A DNA stretch of 64,000 nt, taken from Candidatus Staskawiczbacteria bacterium. Its GTDB lineage: Bacteria > Patescibacteriota > Minisyncoccia > Minisyncoccales > Staskawiczbacteraceae. The position numbers and the translations under genes are program-made. Positions 1,491-53,212 of this stretch are shown here, one piece after another. The stretch lies in the NCBI GenBank assembly GCA_023245155.1, contig JAHFKV010000001.1:139034-203033 (forward strand), written 5' to 3'. Every line of letters starts with the position of its first letter. Positions within the stretch are counted from its first letter, which is position 1. The notes under the pieces are model-generated. The model did not search any database. It was not told the DNA's origin and worked only from the letters and a program-made list of their open reading frames with translations.

Positions 1491-1915
1491 ACAAACAAAC
1501 TGAAACATTTCAAAAGTCACAACTAAAAGCCATGCCCGATATCCGGCCTGGAGATACGGTTAAAGTACACCAAAAAATCAAGGAGGGAGACAAAGAACGT
1601 ATCCAGATTTTTGAAGGCATTGTGATTGCTCGCAAACATGGCAAGGGCATTTCCAGTACGATTACCGTGCGTAAAGTGGTAGAGGGCGTAGGCGTAGAGC
1701 GAATTTTGCCGGTGCATTCTCCTTCAATTGCAAAAATAGAAGTGGTAAAATCAGGGAAAGTACGCAGGGCAAAGTTGTATTACTTGAGGACCGCCAAAGG
1801 CAAAAAAGCTAGACTGAAGAAGAGGGGATTTGCCGCTGCCATCGCACCAGAAGAACTTAAAGCAGTTCAAGAAGAAACAAGCGCGGGTGGCGAAACGGCA
1901 GACGCACTACCTTGA
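1487..1915 (+). CDS. rplS: 50S ribosomal protein L19 with C-terminal extension
   Basis: [34 protein letters not shown]...RRAKLYYLR is the L19 signature. The last ~35 nt overlap tRNA-Leu. Confidence 0.9.
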
Positions 1916-1966: not shown

Positions 1967-1976
1967 GCAAAATAAT

Positions 1977-2080
1977 GTGTCGCAAGGTATCCAGCGGAAA
2001 TCAGGTCACAAGGAATGCTGTATACTAAAATTTTAACCTGATTTCCGAGGTGAATTTTCTCACTTCGTTCCGAAAATTCA
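1977..2080 (+). promoter_or_regulatory. conserved leader motif, copy E1 (with 11-bp-stem hairpin insert), ending at tRNA-Val 5' end
   Basis: GTGTCGCAA ... ggaaatcaggt/acctgatttcc hairpin (1996-2006/2036-2046) ... GTGAATTTTCTCACTTCGTTCCGAAAATTCA. Homologous to copies at 18319, 20863 and 52689. Confidence 0.6.
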
Positions 2081-2167: not shown

Positions 2168-2242
2168 GCCGTGGTAGCTCATTGGTAGAGCAGACGCCTG
2201 AAGAGCGCCTGGTAGGGTGTTCGATTCACCCCCGCGGCACCA
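2168..2242 (+). tRNA. tRNA-Phe(GAA), encoded CCA
   Basis: Acceptor gccgtgg/ccgcggc. Anticodon loop ctGAAga. T-arm gggtgttcgattcaccc. Confidence 0.9.
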
Positions 2243-2471: not shown

Positions 2472-3851
2472 ATGAAAAATAATAAAATATATTTTGCCGT
2501 AATAATAGTTGCTGTGGTGGTTGTTGGTGCAGTCTTGTTCCAAAGTGTCCTCATTCAGGATGCAGGTGGACCAAAGATTGATTATGTTTCTTTCACCAAA
2601 AGTTTGCTGGGAACAAAAATTACCATTAACGGATCTGGCTTTACAGCCTCATTGACGGGGATTAACAATACAAAAGTTAATGAAAAAATACTGCCACCAG
2701 GAAATTATATTATCATCAAAGACAAACTAATAGACAAACCTATCATCTCTCCTGATGGCAAAACACTCACCGCAGAAATCAATCTTGATGACAAGGACAA
2801 GGATTGCAAAGAAAAAGCCAAATCATGCAAAGTCAAAGTAGTTGATGCACACGGAAAATCCAGCAACGAGGCCGAGGTAGGTTCTTCCGATGAAAAGAAT
2901 GATGATGGCAAGGGTGAGCACGGCACATCCAAAAAAGGACCAACCATAACCACCTCCGTTCTGCCCGACGCTAACATATCCATGCCGTATGCATTTACCC
3001 TCTTAGCAACAGGAGGAACGCCCCCTTATACTTGGAGTGCGACACCAGTATCTAACACCTTCACTCAAACTGTACCTTATTATACCAGTGCCCTTCCCAC
3101 TGAATTCCCGCATGCTTACACGGGCCCCGCGGCTGCATTGGATTTTAATGCTACAACCGGCACTTTATCCGGAACACCACGTATTCTTAACGATCGATCA
3201 GCAAGCACCGTGTTTACTTTTAACGCCGTAGTCACCGATGCCAATGGAAACAGTTCATCCAAGCAACTCACTCTTACTACCAAAGCATTGGCAAGCGCAG
3301 TCTTTTGGGTGGAAAAGGGAAAAGATAGAGTCAACCTTGATACTTGCTATGGAACCAGGCTATCTGAAATTAATTTACTTGATGGGTATTTCTCTCCCCC
3401 TGCCCAAGACCCTCCTTGCATTAATGGTTCCACCTCATATGATGCAAAATATAGTACTGGTGCCCTTTCCAACCAATTAAGCGCCACGATTCAAATCACT
3501 GGCGGAACTTCTCCGTCAATGGATGTTGAGCTTGCAACCGATCTTGGTTCAAAAATGATATATTTGCCAAGTGTAAGCACCATTTGTAGCGGTATATATG
3601 GCATTAATCTTAATAATTCCTCTTGGGAATTTTATATTGCCAAAGATGGGTCAACGTACTTTGGCCGGCAAGATCACCAGTGCGGATATTCTGATATGTC
3701 TCCAGAACAAGCGCTTGCTCCACAAAACCTTGCCAGAGGAGCGAGCGCGGCGCCTAATTTATCATTAACTGCAACCACCACTGATTTATCTCCCAATTCC
3801 ATGAGGGCCAACTCACTATCTAATGTAATCATTAAAAAAGTGGGGCAGTAA
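2472..3851 (+). CDS. membrane-anchored secreted protein with Ig-like repeat region
   Basis: N-terminal TM helix (IYFAVIIVAVVVVGAVLF). The segment LPDANISMPYAFTLLATGGTPPYTWSA resembles putative-Ig/cadherin-like domains. Function unknown. Confidence 0.5.
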   Translation: MKNNKIYFAVIIVAVVVVGAVLFQSVLIQDAGGPKIDYVSFTKSLLGTKITINGSGFTASLTGINNTKVNEKILPPGNYIIIKDKLIDKPIISPDGKTLTAEINLDDKDKDCKEKAKSCKVKVVDAHGKSSNEAEVGSSDEKNDDGKGEHGTSKKGPTITTSVLPDANISMPYAFTLLATGGTPPYTWSATPVSNTFTQTVPYYTSALPTEFPHAYTGPAAALDFNATTGTLSGTPRILNDRSASTVFTFNAVVTDANGNSSSKQLTLTTKALASAVFWVEKGKDRVNLDTCYGTRLSEINLLDGYFSPPAQDPPCINGSTSYDAKYSTGALSNQLSATIQITGGTSPSMDVELATDLGSKMIYLPSVSTICSGIYGINLNNSSWEFYIAKDGSTYFGRQDHQCGYSDMSPEQALAPQNLARGASAAPNLSLTATTTDLSPNSMRANSLSNVIIKKVGQ

Positions 3852-9289: not shown

Positions 9290-10036
9290 TTAAACTTGAA
9301 TTTTTGAAAACAAGTAACTACCAACACCAATCAGGGCGGCTGCGATAACAACCATGACTACAAAGTCTGCAGGCAGGCCGAAGTGAGCCATTTGGCCAAG
9401 GGTGCCCCGCAGGCCATCAATACCATAACTCAATGGGTTGATTTTAACTACAACATTTAAAACACTGGGCAGATTGCCTGGCGGGAACAATGAACCGGAA
9501 AGGAAAAACAAGGGCATAACAATAAAGTTCATAATCAGGGGGAAGCCAGTCATATCTTGCACCACTGAAGCAATGGCAGTACCCAAGGCCGTGAACATTA
9601 AGGCAATTAAAAACATAAAGACGAGGGCTAGGGGCAGCAAGGCGAAATTGGTAACACGGAATCCAATCAGCATAGAAATGAACAGAACAATAATGCCCTG
9701 GAAGATGGCAACAGTGGCTCCGCCCAGGGTTCTGCCCAACATAATTTCAAAACGGCTCACTGGGGCCACCAAAGTTTCTTTCAAAAAGCCGAATTGCCGA
9801 TCCCAAATAATTTCAATGCCGCCAAAAATAGCGGTAAATAAAATGCTCATGGCAATCACGCCCGGCGCTAAAAACTGGATGTAATTTCCCTGCCCGGCCT
9901 GCTCAAAGATGTGGCCGAAGCCAAAACCCAGCGCCACCAAAAACAAAATGGGCTGGCCTAAAGATCCGATAATCCTGGATTTTGAACGCAGGTATTTTTT
10001 AATTTGTCTTAACCAAAGAGTGTAAATTGCAGTCAT
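9290..10036 (-). CDS. ABC-2 type transporter permease
   Basis: 248 aa with six hydrophobic segments. Directly downstream of the ABC ATPase. Confidence 0.8.
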   Translation of the reverse strand: MTAIYTLWLRQIKKYLRSKSRIIGSLGQPILFLVALGFGFGHIFEQAGQGNYIQFLAPGVIAMSILFTAIFGGIEIIWDRQFGFLKETLVAPVSRFEIMLGRTLGGATVAIFQGIIVLFISMLIGFRVTNFALLPLALVFMFLIALMFTALGTAIASVVQDMTGFPLIMNFIVMPLFFLSGSLFPPGNLPSVLNVVVKINPLSYGIDGLRGTLGQMAHFGLPADFVVMVVIAAALIGVGSYLFSKIQV

Positions 10037-16176: not shown

Positions 16177-16219
16177 AGTTAATTTCTGGTTTCATGAATT
16201 TTCGGTTAACAAAATAAAA

Positions 16220-16303
16220 CTGTATCCTGGAAGGGATTATATTTAGGCACAGAGCCAAGGTGGACCAACCCTACCACCAAAGGTTTATTTATCCAGGATA
16301 CAG
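16220..16303 (-). terminator. long-loop palindrome/terminator downstream of hppA
   Basis: Perfect 12-bp arms ctgtatcctgga/tccaggatacag enclose 60 nt. Followed on the minus strand by TTTTATTTT. Confidence 0.5.
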
Positions 16304-16320
16304 ATAACAAGGGGCTCGCT

Positions 16321-18318
16321 CTACACCAAGAACGCCACAATCAACAATGCCACAATGTTCAAAACCTTAATCATTGGGTTAATCGCTGGACCAGCGGTGT
16401 CTTTATAAGGGTCGCCGACGGTGTCGCCGGTAACTGCTGCTTGGTGAGCAAAAGAACCTTTACCGCCATGGTTACCCTCTTCAATGTATTTCTTGGCATT
16501 GTCCCATGCAGCTCCGCCCGTAGTCATAGAAATTCCCACAAACAAACCAGTTACAATTGAGCCAATCAGCAATCCTCCCAAAGCCTGGACGCCCAAGAAG
16601 AATCCCACGAGCACCGGGGCTACCACGGTAATAATTACCGGCAACATCATTTCTTTCAAAGCAGCTTTGGTTACAATGTCCACACACTTGCCATATTCCG
16701 GTTTAGCCGTGCCTTCCATTAAACCTTTAATTTCTCTAAATTGTCTGCGCACTTCTTCCACTACCTTGCCGGCCGTTTTTCCAACCGCTCCCATCAAGAA
16801 GCTGGCAAACAAATATGGCAGCAATCCTCCAATCAACAAACCGGCAATGACCCTTGGATTGTCCAAAGCAAAATTGGCAGCGCTTGCCGATCCCGTCAGA
16901 TCAATGACTCTCTGGCTGTAAGCAGCAAACAGTACCAGGGCAGCTAATCCGGCTGAAGCAATGGCATAACCTTTGGTCACCGCTTTCGTGGTATTTCCCA
17001 CAGCATCCAAGGCGTCAGTAATTTTCCTGATGTCTTCGGGCATGCCAGACATTTCTGCAATTCCTCCGGCGTTGTCGGTGATGGGACCGAAAGCATCAAT
17101 ACCCACCACAATTCCTGAAAGCGAGAGCATCGCGGTAACCGCCAATGCCACACCGTAAATGCCAGCTAACCAGAAGGTGGTAATGGTTGCCGCTGCAATA
17201 AGTAAAACAGGTAAAGCAGTTGACTGCATACCCAAGCCAATGCCACGGATAATGTTGGTACCATGGCCAGTTTCTGAAGCTTGGGCAATTGAACGCACCG
17301 GGTTAAACTTTTTTGATGTGTAATATTCGGTAATGACGAACATGCCAACGGCAACCACTAAACCAACAATGGTTGAAAGATACAAATTCATTACAGAAAT
17401 GTCTTGCCCAGCCATCATATTGCTAATTAATGGATAAAATCCAATAGCTGACAAAACGACTGCCACTGCCAAACCCTTGTACATCGCCCCCATAATAGAC
17501 TTGTCTTTGCCAAGCCGTACAAAGAAACTGCCGATAATGGAAGTTAAAATAGAAACGCTGCCCAGCATCAATGGCAACAAGACAAACTGAATGGCGCGAG
17601 GGAAAAGCAGAGCTCCTAAAATCATGGTGGCTACCATGGTGACTGAGTAAGTTTCAAAAATATCAGCAGCCATGCCGGCATTGTCTCCCACCTCGTCTCC
17701 AATTAAGTCTGCAATCACAGCTGGATTTCTGGGATCATCTTCTGGAATAGACTTTTCTACTTTTCCAACCAAGTCAGCTCCCACATCAGCGGCTTTGGTG
17801 TAAATACCTCCGCCAACCCGGGCAAACATGGAAATCAAGCTGGCTCCAAATCCCAAACCAATTAGACCGCTCAAACCAGTCAAAAAGTAATATCCTGCAA
17901 CTGACAAAAGGCCCAAGCTCACTACCATCAAGCCGGTGATTAAACCGCCCTTAAATGACAAATCCAAGGCAAATGCCAAGCCCCTCTTGGCGCCTTCAGC
18001 CACGCGAGTGTTGGCCCGGGTTGAAACCCACATGCCAATAAATCCTGAAAGTCCGCTTAGCACCGCGCCGATTAAAAATCCAATGGCAATCTTCCAGCCC
18101 AAGACAATCCAGAGCAGCACCAACAACACGGCCGCAACAATTGCAACCGTTTTTGACTGGCGACTAAGGTAAGAAGCCGCTCCTTCTTGAATAGCGGCGG
18201 TAATAGCAACAGCCTTATCTTTAGCGGCAGGAGCTTTGCTGACCTGCATGACTAAAAAGATGACGAACGCAATTGCGAATAACGAAACGATGATGGGGAA
18301 ATAGGTGATGAGCATCAT
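16321..18318 (-). CDS. hppA: membrane-bound ion-translocating pyrophosphatase
   Basis: About 16 TM segments, with [28 protein letters not shown] and [11 protein letters not shown] motifs. Start moved to ATGATG at 18318, because the upstream GTG lies inside the repeated leader motif. Confidence 0.95.
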
Positions 18319-18421
18319 GAATTTTGAGCGAAGCGAGAAATTCACTTTGAAAATCAGGTTGAAATTTTAATAGAACGTATCTACTAGACCTGATTTTCAT
18401 TGCGACACATTACTTCGTTCG
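18319..18421 (-). promoter_or_regulatory. conserved leader motif, copy E2 (with hairpin insert)
   Basis: Gene orientation: CGAAGTAATGTGTCGCAATG-[gaaaatcaggt/acctgattttc hairpin]-AAAGTGAATTTCTCGCTTCGCTCAAAATTC-ATG. Confidence 0.6.
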
Positions 18422-18467
18422 TTAATTATTAATTATTTTAATTTTATTTTTTCCATTTAAAGGTGGA

Positions 18468-19574
18468 TTAGAAGCCATCATAATTCCGCATACTGATATT
18501 GGTAATTTCAACCTGAGCGCCATCTGGACCGTAAAGATTAAATCCTAAAACTGTGTCTTTTTTACCAAGCCAAGAAGGATCACTCATTATAACGCTAAAT
18601 GTATCAGGTGTATCTCCCCAAATATAATCCTTACTTTTAATGGTAGCCACAGGAACCGAGTCTAATGTTACCGTTAATGTCGCATCGCTGGATGTCGGGA
18701 AATCGTAATCAAATTCAGTTACAAAGGCTTTATTAGGAGTATACACTGCTTGAGATAGTGTCACTGGCACATTGTCATTTCCCTGCTTTGTTAGCTGAGC
18801 CCAATGGACGTTAGCTCCATATTTTTCATTATACTTTTTCTCTACCACATCTTTGCTTGATGGCTTTTCTGCCGAAAAAGATATATTAGAAAATACTTCG
18901 TTCAATTTGTGGTTAGAGAGTGTAAAGATTACTAATTTACCGCTTAAACTCTTGAAAAAATAGCAACTCATTGAAATGCCATTCTTACTCCCACTTACCC
19001 TAAGCATCTTAATTCCATCAATGTATTCCATTCCAGCACTCTCTTTTCTAAACGATGTTTCAAGCGGATCGCAGAAAGTTTTTTCATACAGAGCTATATT
19101 ATCATTGTAATTCTCTACAGAGAGTTCCTCATTGAATGCCGGCATAATATCAACTCGCCCTGCATTAAAATAAGAAGGGCCCGAGTAATAAATGATTGCT
19201 GATTCATAAGACCCTTTAATGCTATTGATTTTTTGCTCTTGATTAGGCCCCAACAGCTTTACGTTATAGCTAGCCAGATAGTCAAATGAAACGCCATACT
19301 CACTAATAGAATAAGGCAACATGTTAAAAACAGGCTGCTGAATCTGCACTTGTTCTTGAGATTGCTTCTGATTGCTCCCCGAGAGTTGTGGCTGGTTAAC
19401 AGTTTGAATAGCTTCTTGCTGCTGATTTTGAGCTGATTCTGTTCCCGGCCCTGGCAATGAAGCTGGGATAGAATAATTTTTGTATACAAAATATCCACCA
19501 ACCGCCAGCATTACCAGCACTGCCACCATTAAGATTATCGTAATAATTCCGACGATTCCTTTTTGGTTTTGCAT
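18468..19574 (-). CDS. hypothetical membrane-anchored secreted protein
   Basis: 368 aa with an N-terminal TM helix and a Q-rich linker. No family recognised. Confidence 0.5.
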   Translation of the reverse strand: MQNQKGIVGIITIILMVAVLVMLAVGGYFVYKNYSIPASLPGPGTESAQNQQQEAIQTVNQPQLSGSNQKQSQEQVQIQQPVFNMLPYSISEYGVSFDYLASYNVKLLGPNQEQKINSIKGSYESAIIYYSGPSYFNAGRVDIMPAFNEELSVENYNDNIALYEKTFCDPLETSFRKESAGMEYIDGIKMLRVSGSKNGISMSCYFFKSLSGKLVIFTLSNHKLNEVFSNISFSAEKPSSKDVVEKKYNEKYGANVHWAQLTKQGNDNVPVTLSQAVYTPNKAFVTEFDYDFPTSSDATLTVTLDSVPVATIKSKDYIWGDTPDTFSVIMSDPSWLGKKDTVLGFNLYGPDGAQVEITNISMRNYDGF

Positions 19575-19596
19575 AGTTTTACCTTTTCCTTGAAGA

Positions 19597-20862
19597 TTAA
19601 TCAGTTTTTTCTTCGTTTTCTTCTTTCACTTTCTTCGTTTTCTTTTTTGGTTTTTCCTCACCAGCATCAGCCGTCTTTACCCCGTCAAATTGTTCCGCAT
19701 CTTGCGGAACACCGCTTTCGGCGGATTTGACTGGGTGAATATCAATCTTCCAGCCCGTTAATTGAGCAGCTAAGCGCACATTTCTGCCTTCTTTTCCGAT
19801 GGCCAGACTTAACTGGTCTTCAACCACAAATACTTCCGCAGAATTGTTATCAGCAATTTCAACTTTGGTAGCTTTGGCCGGGCTCAAAGCATTAGCAATA
19901 TATTTTTGCGCATCTTCTTGCCACAAAATCACATCAATTTTTTCTCCGCCCAATTCATTAATAACTGCCATGATTCTGGTTCCGCGCTGGCCCACACAGC
20001 TGCCGATGGGGTCAATCCTGTCTTCAGTGCTGGCCACGGCCATTTTTGTCCGGTAACCTGGTTCGCGGGCAATTGATTTTATCACCACAACACCGCCGGC
20101 AATTTCTGGTACCTCTAATTCAAACAAGCGCGAAACTAATTTGGGGTAAGCGCGGCTCAACAAGACAGCCGAGCCCTTGGGGGTATCTTCCACCTTTAAA
20201 ATGTAAAACTTCAAGCGAGCGCCCTGCTTGTAAAATTCGCCGGGAATTTGCTCTTCCCGATTTAAAATGCCCAAGGTTTTGCCAATATCTACCAGCACGG
20301 TATTTCCCTCAACTCGTTGCACAATTCCGGAAATAATTTCCCCTTCTTTGCTTTTGTATTCAGAGGCAATCACACCTTTTTCCGCCTCCCGTATTTTTTG
20401 CAAAATCACCTGCTTGGCAGTTTGGGCGGCAATACGGCCGTAATCCTGCTTTGAAACCAAGGGAATTTCCAATTCTTCACCTAGTTTTATTTTTGGCGCG
20501 GCTTTTTTGGCCTCGTCAATCATGATGTGCTTTTCAGGATTGAAAACCACTTTTTTAGGTGCTTCTTCCCCTTCAATATGCCGGTCAAAATCTTCAGCCG
20601 GTACCAATTTCTGGGCTTTTAATTCTTCAATTTCTTCTTCGGTATACAGCATGCTTTCATCTACTACCAATTTTACCTGCCAAAACTGGGCGTCTCCTGA
20701 AACCTGATTAAACTTGGCTTTGATTTTTTGCCCTTTTTGGCCGTAGTCTTTTTTGTACGCGGTAGCCAAAGCGGCCTCAATGGTTTCTATAATTGATTCG
20801 GTTGAAATACCGCGGGTTTCTGCAATTTGCGCTAAGGCGCGTTGAAATGATTTAATGTCCAT
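19597..20862 (-). CDS. nusA: transcription termination/antitermination factor NusA
   Basis: N-terminal domain, S1-like domain and two KH domains (GSCVGQRGTRI, AIGKEGRNVRLA), plus a K/E-rich tail. Confidence 0.95.
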   Translation of the reverse strand: MDIKSFQRALAQIAETRGISTESIIETIEAALATAYKKDYGQKGQKIKAKFNQVSGDAQFWQVKLVVDESMLYTEEEIEELKAQKLVPAEDFDRHIEGEEAPKKVVFNPEKHIMIDEAKKAAPKIKLGEELEIPLVSKQDYGRIAAQTAKQVILQKIREAEKGVIASEYKSKEGEIISGIVQRVEGNTVLVDIGKTLGILNREEQIPGEFYKQGARLKFYILKVEDTPKGSAVLLSRAYPKLVSRLFELEVPEIAGGVVVIKSIAREPGYRTKMAVASTEDRIDPIGSCVGQRGTRIMAVINELGGEKIDVILWQEDAQKYIANALSPAKATKVEIADNNSAEVFVVEDQLSLAIGKEGRNVRLAAQLTGWKIDIHPVKSAESGVPQDAEQFDGVKTADAGEEKPKKKTKKVKEENEEKTD

Positions 20863-20914
20863 GAATTTGGAACGAAGTGAGAAGGTCGCGAGTTTGCGAC
20901 ACCTTATTCGTTAT
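20863..20914 (-). promoter_or_regulatory. conserved leader motif, copy E3
   Basis: Gene orientation: CGAATAAGGTGTCGCAAACTCGCGACCTTCTCACTTCGTTCCAAATTC-ATG(nusA). Confidence 0.6.
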
Positions 20915-20933
20915 TTAATTTTTTAAATAAAAA

Positions 20934-20951
20934 GTCCGTTTTCAGACGGAC
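20934..20951 (-). terminator. terminator after yraN operon
   Basis: gtccgt/acggac stem, followed on the minus strand by TTTTTATTT. Confidence 0.6.
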
Positions 20952-21005
20952 AAAAAAGTTAATCAGTATTAATTGCAATAAGTGTAGCAAAAACCAACAG
21001 CCATG

Positions 21006-21377
21006 TCAACCTTCCACCGCATTGGGGAAATAGTGAAGTTTAGCTACGCGAGTATTTTGATTGGCCAGAATACCAATGATGTCAATTTGGTAGGCCGCAT
21101 CCTGCCTGTACTTATTTTTTTCAAGCCAGATTTGAGCCATTTGGCGGAGCTTTCTTTGTTTTCGATAATCTACGTGTTCCTCGGGCGCAAAATTATAGCC
21201 ATTATCAGCCATAGCTTTCACTTCCACAAAATGAATCGTTTTGTCTCTTTTAGCAATAATGTCAATTTCTCCAAACGTTATCCTATAGTTTTTCCCTAGA
21301 ATTTTAAACCCCTTTTCCACCAGATATTCACAGGCCATTTTTTCACCCAAATCGCCCAACTCCTTGGTGGTCATCAC
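21006..21377 (-). CDS. yraN: YraN-family (UPF0102) endonuclease
   Basis: LGDLGEKMACEYLVEKGFKILGKNYRITFGEIDIIAKRDKTIHFVEVK is the family signature. Confidence 0.8.
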   Translation of the reverse strand: MMTTKELGDLGEKMACEYLVEKGFKILGKNYRITFGEIDIIAKRDKTIHFVEVKAMADNGYNFAPEEHVDYRKQRKLRQMAQIWLEKNKYRQDAAYQIDIIGILANQNTRVAKLHYFPNAVEG

Positions 21378-46312: not shown

Positions 46313-47671
46313 ATGAACAATAGCGACCTTTGGCAATCAGTCTTAGCTCAAATGCAATTGCATATATCTAAAGCTAATTTTGCCACCTGGTTTCAAAACA
46401 CTGAAATTTCTGAAAAAGACAATGAAAAAATTGTCATTTCGGTTCCTAATGCCTTTTCTAAAGAATGGTTGAGCAATAAATACTATAAAATCATGCTCAA
46501 AACCATGCGGGATATAGATAACAGCATTAAAGAATTGGCCTTTGTCATAAACCCTCAAACCCTGAAGACCAGCTTACCCCAGTCCGTTAAAGAAAATGAA
46601 AAAATAGAAACAGAACAGTTAAAGTTTGATGAGTTTAAGATAAATAAAGAAACTAATCTTAACCCTCGTTATACTTTTGAAAATTTTGTAGTGGGTTCAT
46701 TTAATGATTTAGCCTATGCGGCGGGCTTGGCGGTTTCTGAAAACCCAGGATATGCCTACAATCCATTATTTATTTATGGAGGGGTTGGGTTGGGAAAAAC
46801 CCATTTAATCCAGGCTATTGGCAATAAAATCGCCAGCGACCCTAAAAAGAAGAAGGTGAAATATATCCCCTCCGAAAAACTGATATCTAATATCGTTGCG
46901 GCTATCAGGAGCAACACCATGGAGGCCTTTAAGGCCAGCCTTGCCCCAATTGATGTGCTGATTATTGATGATGTCCAATTTATTGCCGGAAAGATAAAAA
47001 CCCAGCAGGAATTTTTTCACGCCTTTAATTCTTTGTACGAAAAAAATAAACAAATCATCCTCTCGAGCGATCGCCAACCCAACGCCATCCCCGAACTTGA
47101 AGAGCGGCTAAGGTCCCGTTTTGAAGGCGGCATGATTATCGACGTCAGCTTACCCGACTACGAAACCAGATTGGTGATTTTAAAACAAAAACTTCAGGAA
47201 AAAAACGTTAAACTCCCCGAAGACATCTTAGAATATATTGCCTCAAACGTAAAAAAGAATGTGCGCGAATTAGAGGGGGCTCTCAACAGCCTTTTAATTT
47301 ACTATAAAATCAACAACTCTATTCCCACCCTAGAGGTGGCAAAAAAACTCCTTAAAAGCTTTATTTTCTCACCGTTCGACGTAACTAATTATAAAAAAAT
47401 CATTGAGACGGTCTCTAGGTTTTATAATCTTGAAGAAAAACACCTGTTTGACGTTACCCGCCGCAAAGAAATCGTAAAGCCGCGGCAAATTGCCATGTTT
47501 TTACTGCGCAAGGAATTAAAATATTCATTCCCTGCCATTGCCCGCAAGTTTGGCGGCAAAGACCACACTACCGTCATTTATGCATACAAAAAAATCCTTC
47601 GCGAGGTAGAAGAAAATAGCAAACTAACCGAAGAATTAAACTTAATTAAACAGCGGGTATATAGTGGATAA
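46313..47671 (+). CDS. dnaA: chromosomal replication initiator protein DnaA
   Basis: Walker A GGVGLGKTHL, Walker B LIIDDVQF, and C-terminal DNA-binding helix GGKDHTTVIYAYKKI. Confidence 0.97.
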   Translation: MNNSDLWQSVLAQMQLHISKANFATWFQNTEISEKDNEKIVISVPNAFSKEWLSNKYYKIMLKTMRDIDNSIKELAFVINPQTLKTSLPQSVKENEKIETEQLKFDEFKINKETNLNPRYTFENFVVGSFNDLAYAAGLAVSENPGYAYNPLFIYGGVGLGKTHLIQAIGNKIASDPKKKKVKYIPSEKLISNIVAAIRSNTMEAFKASLAPIDVLIIDDVQFIAGKIKTQQEFFHAFNSLYEKNKQIILSSDRQPNAIPELEERLRSRFEGGMIIDVSLPDYETRLVILKQKLQEKNVKLPEDILEYIASNVKKNVRELEGALNSLLIYYKINNSIPTLEVAKKLLKSFIFSPFDVTNYKKIIETVSRFYNLEEKHLFDVTRRKEIVKPRQIAMFLLRKELKYSFPAIARKFGGKDHTTVIYAYKKILREVEENSKLTEELNLIKQRVYSG

Positions 47672-47754
47672 CCTGTAGAATAAATCATAGAAAGCTGCAC
47701 AGTAAAAACTATACCAAAAGAACCCCAGCCCCAACCACTAGGCAAAAACACATA

Positions 47755-47763
47755 TTATCCACA
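47755..47763 (+). promoter_or_regulatory. perfect DnaA box TTATCCACA
   Basis: Exact consensus 9-mer. Confidence 0.7.
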
Positions 47764-47884
47764 ACTTATTATTAAAATAATTTACCTTAAAATAGCTAAG
47801 AGAAAAGCTAATAATATATTAAAAAAGCCACTACTAATAACAATAATAAGTTATTTAATATATTAATTACTATTATTATATAAT

Positions 47885-47893
47885 TGTGGAAAA
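47885..47893 (-). promoter_or_regulatory. DnaA-box variant (TTTTCCACA on minus strand)
   Basis: One mismatch to the consensus, 10 nt upstream of the dnaN start. Confidence 0.5.
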
Positions 47894-47902
47894 CCACATT
47901 AC

Positions 47903-49030
47903 ATGAAAATCGAAATATTAAAAGAAAATTTAAAAACAGCATTACTGGTGTGTGAAAAAGTGATTGGTAAGAACTTGTCGCTACCCATTTTAAATAATGT
48001 GCTTATTGATGCCCAGGACACTTTTTTGGGTTTAGTTTCAACCGACTTAGAGTCTGTTATTAAGTTTTGGGTGTTAACTAAAATTATTAAAAAGGGGAAG
48101 GTGGTGGTGCCGGCTAAATTCCTCTCTGGTTTTGTTTCTTCGTTGCCAAACCAAAAAATTACCCTGGAAACGATGGGCGAAGATTTAAAACTCGAGTGCG
48201 GGGCCATAAAAACTCAGGTGCGGGGCTTTAATTTAGAAGACTTCCCTATTATCCCCGAATTCAATAACGGTGATTTTTTAGAGGTAGACAATCAACTCTT
48301 TCTTGACGGCCTTGGCCAGATTATTGATGTGGCCTCACCATCTTCAACCCGGCCGGAAATTTCGGGAATTTATTTACATTTTTCTAAGAACACCATTACT
48401 ATTGCGGCCACTGACAGCTTCCGCTTGGCGGAAAAACACATTACCCTTGCCGGCCCCGTTAAAAAAGAGTTCTCATTTATCTTGCCCCAGAAACCAGCCC
48501 GGGACATCATTAGTATTTTAGGGGGCAAAGAGGGGTTATTAAAAATATTTTTTTCTGACAACCAAGTGTTGTTTGAGTTTCCCATGAAAGAGACCGCACA
48601 CCCTCAAGCTCAAATTACCTCCCGCTTGATTGAAGGCCAATACCCCAACTACCAAGATATTATTCCCGCCAAATTTAAAACCAGGATTGTAGTTGCTAAA
48701 GATGACTTTTTAAGCCAGATAAAAACCGCCTCGCTGTTTTCTGGGAAGGTTAACGAAGTGAAAATTTCTCTTAATGCGGAAAAACATCAAATGGAAATCT
48801 TTTCTAAAAGTCCCGATCTTGGCGAAAACATATCCACTATGCCTATAAAAATAGAAGGCGAGTCCATGGATGTTTCCTTTAACTATAAATACTTAATTGA
48901 CGGCCTCATGCAAATTAAGGGTTCTGAGGTGGCTTTTGATTTAAGCAAGGAGGAGGGGCCGTGCATTTTACGCCCCGTGGGTGATGCCAGTTATATATAT
49001 ATGGCTATGCCCATTAAATCAATGCAGTAG
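47903..49030 (+). CDS. dnaN: DNA polymerase III beta sliding clamp
   Basis: 375 aa with a three-domain clamp pattern (ATDSFRLAE, LIEGQYPNYQDIIP). dnaA-dnaN synteny. Confidence 0.95.
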   Translation: MKIEILKENLKTALLVCEKVIGKNLSLPILNNVLIDAQDTFLGLVSTDLESVIKFWVLTKIIKKGKVVVPAKFLSGFVSSLPNQKITLETMGEDLKLECGAIKTQVRGFNLEDFPIIPEFNNGDFLEVDNQLFLDGLGQIIDVASPSSTRPEISGIYLHFSKNTITIAATDSFRLAEKHITLAGPVKKEFSFILPQKPARDIISILGGKEGLLKIFFSDNQVLFEFPMKETAHPQAQITSRLIEGQYPNYQDIIPAKFKTRIVVAKDDFLSQIKTASLFSGKVNEVKISLNAEKHQMEIFSKSPDLGENISTMPIKIEGESMDVSFNYKYLIDGLMQIKGSEVAFDLSKEEGPCILRPVGDASYIYMAMPIKSMQ

Positions 49031-52688: not shown

Positions 52689-52740
52689 GAATTTGGAACG
52701 AAGTGAGAAATTCGCAGCTATTGCGACACCTTACTTCGCT
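52689..52740 (-). promoter_or_regulatory. conserved leader motif, copy E4 (5' half overlaps the comEA stop region)
   Basis: Gene orientation: CGAAGTAAGGTGTCGCAATAGCTGCGAATTTCTCACTTCGTTCCAAATTC-ATG(yebC). Confidence 0.6.
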
Positions 52741-53212
52741 TTAGTTTAATAAATAGTAATACGAGTAATCCTAAAATAACAATTACTGCTCCTGTACTGG
52801 TAAAAAGGGGCCGTGGATCGGGCATGGTGCTTACATCTATAGCCGTACTCAACGCGGCCGGAGCTACACTAACATTATTATCAATTTTTTTGGTTTTTGG
52901 CAAGCTGGATGCTTTGGCAGACCTTGGTTTTGCTGCCGGCGGCGCGAGCGCGACCATTTCAGGAGCCACATAGGCCAACCCTTGATCCTTTATTTTCTTC
53001 AAAGTGGCCTGGCCAATACCCTTAACATGTAATAAATCATCAACGTAATAGTAGGGGTGTCCGTCAACAATCCGCTGTGCCAGTGCCGGTCCAATTCCGG
53101 CTAGCCCGTCAAGCTGTTTTATGCTGGCCGTATTGATATCAACGCGATCGGCTGCTAATAGGAAAGCTGGCCACACAAATAATAGTAAAAAAGCCAGCCA
53201 AAGCTTTTTCAT
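52718..53212 (-). CDS. comEA: ComEA-like helix-hairpin-helix DNA-binding protein
   Basis: Signal/TM segment, then [26 protein letters not shown]...[12 protein letters not shown] (HhH motifs), then a C-terminal TM helix. Confidence 0.75.

Follow-up and report, generated by a model that had tools for sequence, protein, structure and literature searches.

Genomes of the Candidate Phyla Radiation (CPR) are usually considered almost free of repeats. Elsewhere, the Rickettsia palindromic elements (RPE) are palindromic repeats of a reduced genome that insert in genes, RNA genes included, and can add in-frame residues, and operator hairpins are found at start codons, as in the MS2/R17 coat-protein operator and in those of ribosomal proteins such as S15. 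In Neisseria and in enterobacteria, respectively, Correia/NEMIS and ERIC/IRU are repeats akin to miniature inverted-repeat transposable elements (MITEs) that are co-transcribed with neighbour genes (Delihas 2008, PMC2229807). Here we analysed a 64-kb stretch of a Candidatus Staskawiczbacteria genome (contig JAHFKV010000001.1; hereafter, the window), where a hairpin-forming element of 55-125 bases precedes several housekeeping genes and one tRNA in the orientation of the gene. Our findings are best explained if this element is a lineage-restricted, duplicating, non-coding module of Candidatus Staskawiczbacteria, and we tentatively favour the reading that it is a portable cis-acting leader RNA affecting translation or stability.

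The window holds four homologous copies, all of them present exactly as quoted in an earlier sequence-only reading of this DNA, with the adjoining genes identified by Pfam and ARAGORN. The short forms E3 (20863-20918, minus strand) and E4 (52689-52745, minus strand) lie directly upstream of the ATG of nusA (20862-20860) and yebC (52688-52686), the long form E2 (18319-18436, minus strand) upstream of that of hppA (18318-18316), whereas the long-form variant E1 (1967-2080, plus strand) fills the spacer between tRNA-Leu(gag) and tRNA-Val(tac), running from the CCA end of the former (1966) to one base before G1 of the latter (2081). Every copy terminates in AAATTCA, the final A of which is the A of ATG at nusA, yebC and hppA and base -1 of tRNA-Val in E1. 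This similarity is not due to chance. Indeed, the 15-mer TTCTCACTTCGTTCC occurs three times exactly in the window, with E2 at three mismatches, and the six matches found at up to three mismatches compare with 1.25 expected and were reached in none of 100 shuffles; E3 and E4 share 24 identical bases. The covariance model R1, run with filters off, scored the copies between 47 and 116 bits (E 3e-10 to 5e-29), that is, 47.5 bits for E3 (E 3e-10), 59.7 for E4, 66 for E1 and 115.7 for E2, and found no fifth copy in the window, the next forward-strand match being one of 15 bits (E 0.29). The predicted folds of E3, E4 and E2 have energies of -12.7, -16.4 and -31.5 kcal/mol, with z scores of -3.5, -3.4 and -5.6, respectively.

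The element belongs to no catalogued RNA family, in line with the sequence-only reading, which had not recognised it. Searching the whole window against Rfam 15 at gathering scores returned only tRNAs, and relaxing the threshold to E <= 10 in the region 18250-21000, which contains E2 and E3, yielded chance-level matches elsewhere only. The covariance model matched nothing in 470 kb of viral control contigs (54 loci), and all 119 matches to the 15-mer over 596 Gb of genome contigs were chance hits, none with the extended motif. Nothing relevant emerged from the literature searched for CPR repeats and structured RNAs. The terminal heptamer AAATTCA occurs 31 times in the window and is tied to a start only in the copies and in one remnant at 16201, for which reason we rejected it as a general initiation signal. 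Reading frames and stops differ among the copies, and a conserved upstream open reading frame was likewise discarded on this ground.

Covariation was tested on nine copies that are related to one another, in an alignment fitted to the model, and palindromes at the DNA level would produce it as well; read with these bounds, the helices P2 and P3 are 98.3% paired with eight pairs changed on both sides, and none of 500 shuffles reached the covariation score. P2 is UCGC/G[C/U]GA, and P3 a 12-bp hairpin missing from the short forms E3 and E4. Compensatory changes are also present among the vertically inherited hppA copies. The outer stem P1, between the 5' and 3' blocks highlighted by the sequence-only reading, fared less well: its arms CGAAGTAAG/CTCACTTCG do match at 8 of 9 positions in E4, but it has no compensatory change and is degenerate in E1 and in the pyrG copy of the relative L126. 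Compensatory change thus lies not in P1, for which a check was proposed there, but in P2/P3 and in a further hairpin, P4, that had been overlooked.

P4 pairs (G)UGAAUUU with AAAUUCA(U/C) around an invariant 13-nt loop, CUC(A/G)CUUCG(U/C)UCC, and its 3' strand abuts or includes the AUG. It is kept at 7-9 bp in nine of ten copies and broken only in E3, where the substitutions that break it strengthen P1b. An A-U pair is flipped to U-A in L209 (UGAUUUUA/UAAAAUCA), and the arms are extended in step in E1 (UUUUC/GAAAA), L126 (UUUUU/AAAAA) and L139 (UUUC/GAAA); P4 reaches its greatest length in copies with a degenerate P1. At loop positions 4 and 10, six copies have A and U and four have G and C, with zero intermediates. 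In long forms only, an alternative hairpin GAAGUGA/UCACUUC competes for the same 3' segment, GUGAAUUU-CUCACUUCG, which can pair with any of three alternatives: the 5' arm, an internal GAAGUGA or the tail that carries the AUG. Pairing alone does not account for the degree of conservation of the 5' block UAAGGUGUCGCAA and of the 3' block, and a conserved tail of 11-12 nt lies outside the 3' inverted repeat. The palindromic architecture appears to be under selection, at the RNA or the DNA level.

In E3, P1 joins AACGAA (20912-20907) to TTCGTT (20876-20871) and P2 joins GTCGC (20900-20896) to GCGAC (20889-20885). P1b, read from the sequence as AAGG (20905-20902) with CCTT (20885-20882), comprises only 3 bp in the minimum free energy (MFE) fold, AGG (20904-20902) with TCT (20882-20880); the core CTCACTTCGTT occupies 20881-20871 and the tail CCAAATTC 20870-20863. 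E2 carries, besides the P3 hairpin, a P4 made of the 5' arm GTGAATTT (18345-18338) and the 3' arm AAATTCAT (18324-18317), with the core CTCGCTTCGCT (18337-18327) in between. It also extends the motif beyond its earlier limits, since long forms reach further 5' to a conserved ATAATTAA box (18436-18422 in E2). This 8-mer is rare, with seven occurrences per 128 kb (both strands of the window), and therefore belongs to the element. In E1, the 5' arm of P1 is degenerate and P4 is lengthened to 9 bp (TGAATTTTC/GAAAATTCA), ending at 2080. As for E4, Pfam recognises YebC and ComEA-like helix-hairpin-helix domains in the genes at this copy, the 5' part of which supplies the last seven codons and the stop TAG of comEA. 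This stop (52720-52718) falls in the inner-hairpin loop; thus, the 5' half of E4 does lie inside comEA, as the sequence-only reading had it.

We retrieved further loci by a longer pattern search of metagenome contigs and from the loci of NusA, YebC and L19 homologues, which assign the window to Candidatus Staskawiczbacteria (Parcubacteria, CPR); the DNA of the source organism covered consists of the window and L207, a 6.6-kb contig of a near-identical strain that also carries E1. None of the loci retrieved has a 16S rRNA gene. Copies orthologous to E2 precede hppA in L139 (11297-11407) and L141 (13650-13759). Others stand upstream of efp in L127 (570-670, minus strand), of pyrG in L126 (297-371) and of rpsO in L142 (3138-3244, minus strand), while diverged copies adjoin the GTG start of rpmA in L126 (2390-2496, minus strand) and precede ftsH in L209 and its duplicates (3589-3691; 39 bits with R1, 71 bits with R2). 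A degenerate variant upstream of tig in L141 (16543-16685; 38.6 bits with R2) has lost the 3' core and contains a nested insertion; its interior, GCAAGGTATCCAGCG...GGTCACAAGG, is held in common with E1, so the family has sub-variants common to several genomes.

At all of these approximately 10 independent loci, the element has the orientation of the gene that follows and ends 0-2 nt from its start, and the covariance-model scans did not reveal the irregular scatter that would mark a plain dispersed repeat. Copies of the relatives end in TTC or in TTCAC directly before the ATG; the claim that the motif ends exactly at starts therefore holds for its adjoining them, with a true range of 0-2 nt and, in the window, the final A shared with the ATG. 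Orientation follows the gene and not replication, as E1 (plus strand) and E2 and E3 (minus strand) lie on the same flank of dnaA/dnaN (46.3-49.0 kb). The downstream genes serve mostly core expression (nusA, yebC, efp, rpsO, rpmA, tig, ftsH and tRNA-Val, plus pyrG and hppA), and the gene that carries the element differs from genome to genome, only the hppA copy being common, to three close relatives (the window, L139 and L141).

The "conserved leader motif" of the sequence-only reading is not conserved as a leader of these particular genes, to judge by the orthologous sites of close relatives. The nusA site is empty in all seven relatives (83-90% NusA identity), the element-free leader of L139 reading ...ttagaaaaaatt up to the ATG. 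The hppA site is empty in five of seven, with ...aaaaaaattc before the ATG in L142; the genomes sharing the hppA copy with the window, L139 and L141, are the closest to it by NusA identity (88-90%). The spacer between tRNA-Leu and tRNA-Val measures 6 nt in L209 versus 114 nt in the window, and insertion into such a short spacer explains why E1 abuts both tRNAs. At the remaining site, comEA overlaps yebC in L202 and ends ...FKLKK* in L205, whereas the window protein ends ...KLKRSKVSQ*, its last codons being derived from the element. Filled and empty sites at nusA (window/L139) and hppA (window/L142) displayed no consistent target-site duplication, and the sole direct-repeat-like trace was an AAATT-like microhomology at nusA. 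As orthologous sites are often empty, we regard the element as an insertion-type duplicating module and not as an inherited gene-specific leader; judged from the sequences compared, its spread into leaders by insertion or duplication is shown.

Two further observations bear on start regions. Relatives lacking the element have unrelated AT-rich palindromes or tandem repeats directly before the starts of nusA (L138, L141, L143), hppA or yebC (L205), for example CTAAATCC.../...TTTAGAG hairpins and CAAATTT repeats. They map to ~9880-10000 and ~12400-12500 in L138, ~9880-10000 in L141 and L143, ~11900-11933 in L143 and ~9910-10000 in L205, and hairpins adjoining starts may be a general habit of the clade. 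Also, CCGAAAATTCATG at 16196-16208 of the window (minus strand), 25 nt upstream of the start of the pterin-4a-carbinolamine dehydratase gene, equals the E1 tail followed by an out-of-frame ATG and may be the remnant of a lost copy.

Upstream of nusA and E3 lie a promoter-like TTGACA-17-TACACT (21009-20981, minus strand; 10/12 match, with TG) and a terminator-like site, the hairpin GTCCGTCTGAAAACGGAC followed by a T-run (20951-20924, minus strand). The former recurs in L138, L139, L143, L145 and L146, and the hairpin in these five and in L141, where the promoter match is unclear. Together, 20924-21009 resembles a nusA leader/attenuator that is likely autoregulatory, which would place E3 within a transcribed 5' untranslated region (UTR). 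The relatives keep this promoter and hairpin without the element; thus, E3 was inserted between a conserved attenuator and the ATG. Since, in addition, E1 lies inside a tRNA operon and E4 starts within comEA, the view that the motif is not simply a promoter stands. Its reported lack of a Shine-Dalgarno (SD) site before the ATG is real too but nothing special to the motif: SD-like 4-mers precede 6 of 47 window genes, a frequency equal to the background (13%), A makes up 43% of the 20 nt ahead of starts, and the genome does not use SD sites, which makes their absence a property of the genome. The anti-SD motif is missing in about half of Parcubacteria (PMC9297842).

On these grounds, a portable leader RNA acting in cis is the reading that we prefer, as possible rather than firmly probable. 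The module would be transcribed in the direction of the gene that follows, at the end of its 5' UTR or of an intercistronic spacer. Its long forms open with the ATAATTAA box, followed by a 5' domain, CGAAGUAAG-GUG-UCGC-[loop or 12-bp P3 hairpin]-G(C/U)GA, and by a 3' module, UGAAUUU-CUC(A/G)CUUCG(U/C)UCC-AAAUUCA, the last base of which either is the A of the AUG or stands immediately before it. Two folds that exclude each other may form, in which the 5' domain and P4 would be alternative partners of the invariant segment. In the first (P1+P1b+P2, with P3 where present), the 5' arm would pair with the invariant CUCACUUCG, leaving the A/U-rich 10-nt tail and the AUG single-stranded; in the second, the 7-9 bp P4 hairpin would expose CUCACUUCGUUCC as its loop, with the 3' strand abutting or including the start codon. 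The module might thereby set how tail and AUG are presented to the ribosome in a host devoid of SD sites or, alternatively, to a factor reading the invariant loop, and it may also protect or stabilise the message. Copies would survive only where they end at a start codon.

Several points weigh against such a leader. P1/P1b is 70.7% paired and has no pair in which both sides changed. P4 is weak: it is the MFE structure of the isolated 3' module in six copies, at -3.6 to -7.4 kcal/mol, and not in E3, E4 or L142. The computed accessibility of positions -8 to +3 is nearly equal in full-length and 5'-truncated RNAs, so a thermodynamic switch is not demonstrated and, with the unpaired probability nearly constant on truncation, we rejected an ON/OFF mechanism of this kind. 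By MFE, the sense strand folds better in four copies and the antisense strand in five, and the balance of G.U against A.C appositions is mixed; for example, P3 of L142 has a C.A mismatch on the sense strand. The sample holds only about 10 loci, with no conserved tie to orthologous genes or to one pathway among them, and an indispensable regulator would not be expected to be so patchy at orthologous sites. For the tRNA-Val copy, a role in translation is excluded; transcription, the choice of fold and any effect on expression are what we infer.

Doubtful, though ahead of the other rivals, is that the element is a selfish or neutral palindromic DNA repeat of the MITE/REP kind without RNA function, moved by a transposase or by replication/recombination slippage, whose hairpins would matter as DNA (for example, as single-stranded recognition sites) and whose position rule would result from target preference and from the purging of harmful insertions where the genome is highly compact. 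Dispersed copies with filled and empty orthologous sites, terminal inverted repeats (8/9), long forms next to short, internally deleted ones, as in Correia elements (PMC2229807), the in-frame extension of comEA, the folding energies without strand bias and the other AT-rich palindromes at the same positions in relatives all agree with it. It does not account for the missing target-site duplication and TA ends, for the 11-12 conserved bases outside the 3' inverted repeat or for an orientation independent of the replication strand; nor would random insertion into spacers of 20-100 nt be expected to leave about ten of ten loci in sense and 0-2 nt from a start. No transposase domain appears in the Pfam lists of the neighbourhoods seen. 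Furthermore, compensatory change maintains the hairpin in the inherited hppA copies, which are therefore not decaying. Even on this dullest reading, it would be a small mobile repeat that behaves most unusually, lying sense to genes and adjoining their start codons.

A variant of the leader reading, which we deem improbable, makes the module a translational operator, or a leader that recruits ribosomes, common to highly expressed genes with mostly translation-related roles in bacteria that have abandoned SD pairing. The loop CUCACUUCGUUCC would then be read by a trans-acting protein, a small RNA or a segment of rRNA, with the 5' domain as a built-in competitor for the loop; the element would amount to a portable regulon tag, 5'TOP-like, spread by duplication.

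We give no more credit to a promoter-plus-leader cassette, where the ATAATTAA box would be a -10 box, transcription would start at the first P1 base and P1 would block 5'-end-dependent decay. The box could indeed be a -10 element. It stands 4-8 nt upstream of P1 in the long forms E2, L139, L141, L142 and L127, and AATAAT or TATAAT precedes the first P1 base by 7 nt in E2 and the rpsO copy of L142 and by 4-10 nt in L139, L141 and L127; the rarity of the 8-mer, a weak TTTAAA-18-AATAAT called just upstream of E2 and the perfect TATAAT of the L142 copy, which follows a hairpin and Ts read by eye, go in the same direction. On the other hand, the sigma-70 promoter scan called no site in the conserved blocks, none at the L142 copy and no -35 partner, and -10-like strings are common in AT-rich spacers. 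E1 and E4, adjoined by tRNA-Leu and native comEA codons, are without the box, E3 is already preceded by a promoter and an attenuator that are conserved, and this reading would not explain why the 3' block and the tail are.

Least likely of all is an RNA-processing signal, at which endonucleolytic or self-cleavage of the 3' edge would yield mRNAs with little or no leader and create the 5' terminus of tRNA-Val. This edge does stand at the A of AUG or 2 nt ahead of it, falls on position -1 of tRNA-Val and is where the P4 3' strand ends, but this boundary moves by 2 nt between copies (TTC or TTCAC before ATG), no ribozyme family matches, insertion into a 6-nt spacer explains the tRNA-Val coincidence, and an RNase P protein encoded in the clade (L205) suggests RNase P as the maker of the tRNA 5' end.

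Other candidates were tried and rejected. An SD mimic, AAGGUG, in the 5' block is not conserved (AAUGUG in E1 and E2) and is paired in P1b. No intrinsic terminator was called in any copy, the stems being followed by UUCCAAAUUC. Kink-turns were dismissed for want of tandem G.A pairs, integron attC sites for want of RYYYAAC/GTTRRRY ends and because the genes are housekeeping ones, hammerhead and other self-cleaving ribozymes on the absence of core motifs and Rfam matches, and T7-like or ECF-type (extracytoplasmic function) promoters on wrong spacing or unconserved boxes. A promoter for leaderless transcripts was not retained either, positions -12 to -7 before the ATG being CGTTCC.

Some features apart from the element were recorded along the way. 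Just downstream of hppA, at 16215-16304 of the window (minus strand), a 12-bp stem CTGTATCCTGGA/TCCAGGATACAG encloses a loop of ~65 nt and is followed by TTTTATTTT; the stem is conserved upstream of tig in L145, has no Rfam match and is probably part of an unusually large-looped terminator. The L19 (rplS) open reading frame extends 35 nt into tRNA-Leu(gag), at 1881-1915 (plus strand), and public assemblies have the same 142-aa product. A group I intron (RF00028, 56.6 bits) at 10648-10882 of L209 splits tRNA-Phe(gaa) just after the anticodon, whereas tRNA-Phe of the window (2168-2242) is intact. Pfam places dnaA and dnaN at 46313-49030 (plus strand), and the adjoining stretch is the most AT-rich of the window (GC 0.358, 46-48 kb); this is probably the oriC region, though the cumulative GC-skew minimum lies near 24-26 kb.

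For the way translation starts in CPR/Parcubacteria, a compact, conserved module that ends at start codons and stands before core expression genes offers a concrete handle on SD-independent initiation, or on control through leaders, in uncultivated bacteria. Such insertions also rewrite gene ends, as at the ComEA C-terminus, and tRNA spacers.

Among known systems, riboswitch and attenuator expression platforms resemble the element in their alternative, mutually exclusive helices; yet, no Rfam aptamer matches it, its downstream genes are metabolically incoherent, it is patchy at orthologous sites, and its computed energetics show no balanced switch. P4 is similar in form to operators at start codons, being a small hairpin with an invariant loop and its 3' strand at the AUG, the shape of an operator bound by its repressor, from which it differs in that the same hairpin precedes many unrelated genes and that an upstream domain can pair with the loop. 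REP/BIME sequences, served by RAYT transposases, are likewise short, intergenic, imperfect palindromes between co-directional genes. However, REPs lie 3' of genes, often clustered and in both orientations, with a GTAG-type head, none of which was seen here, and no RAYT gene was observed with the element.

The closest known systems are the co-transcribed bacterial MITEs Correia/NEMIS and ERIC, together with RPE (PMC2229807). Like the latter, the element is a palindromic repeat that can enter a gene in frame, E4 adding KRSKVSQ* to ComEA, although RPE reside mostly inside coding regions and the element in leaders, adjoining start codons. With Correia and ERIC it shares its small size (<200 bp), its non-coding nature, its inverted-repeat ends, long forms next to short ones with internal deletions, sites that are occupied in one relative and empty in another, and occasional fusion to an open reading frame; co-transcription, and RNA hairpins with a proposed influence on mRNA processing or stability, would be common ground as well. 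Unlike them, it lacks TA ends and target-site duplications, keeps a conserved 11-12-nt tail outside its 3' repeat, appears to have a low copy number (about 4 per 64 kb) and inhabits a CPR bacterium devoid of SD sites, where each copy seen is oriented with the gene that follows and ends at its start codon.

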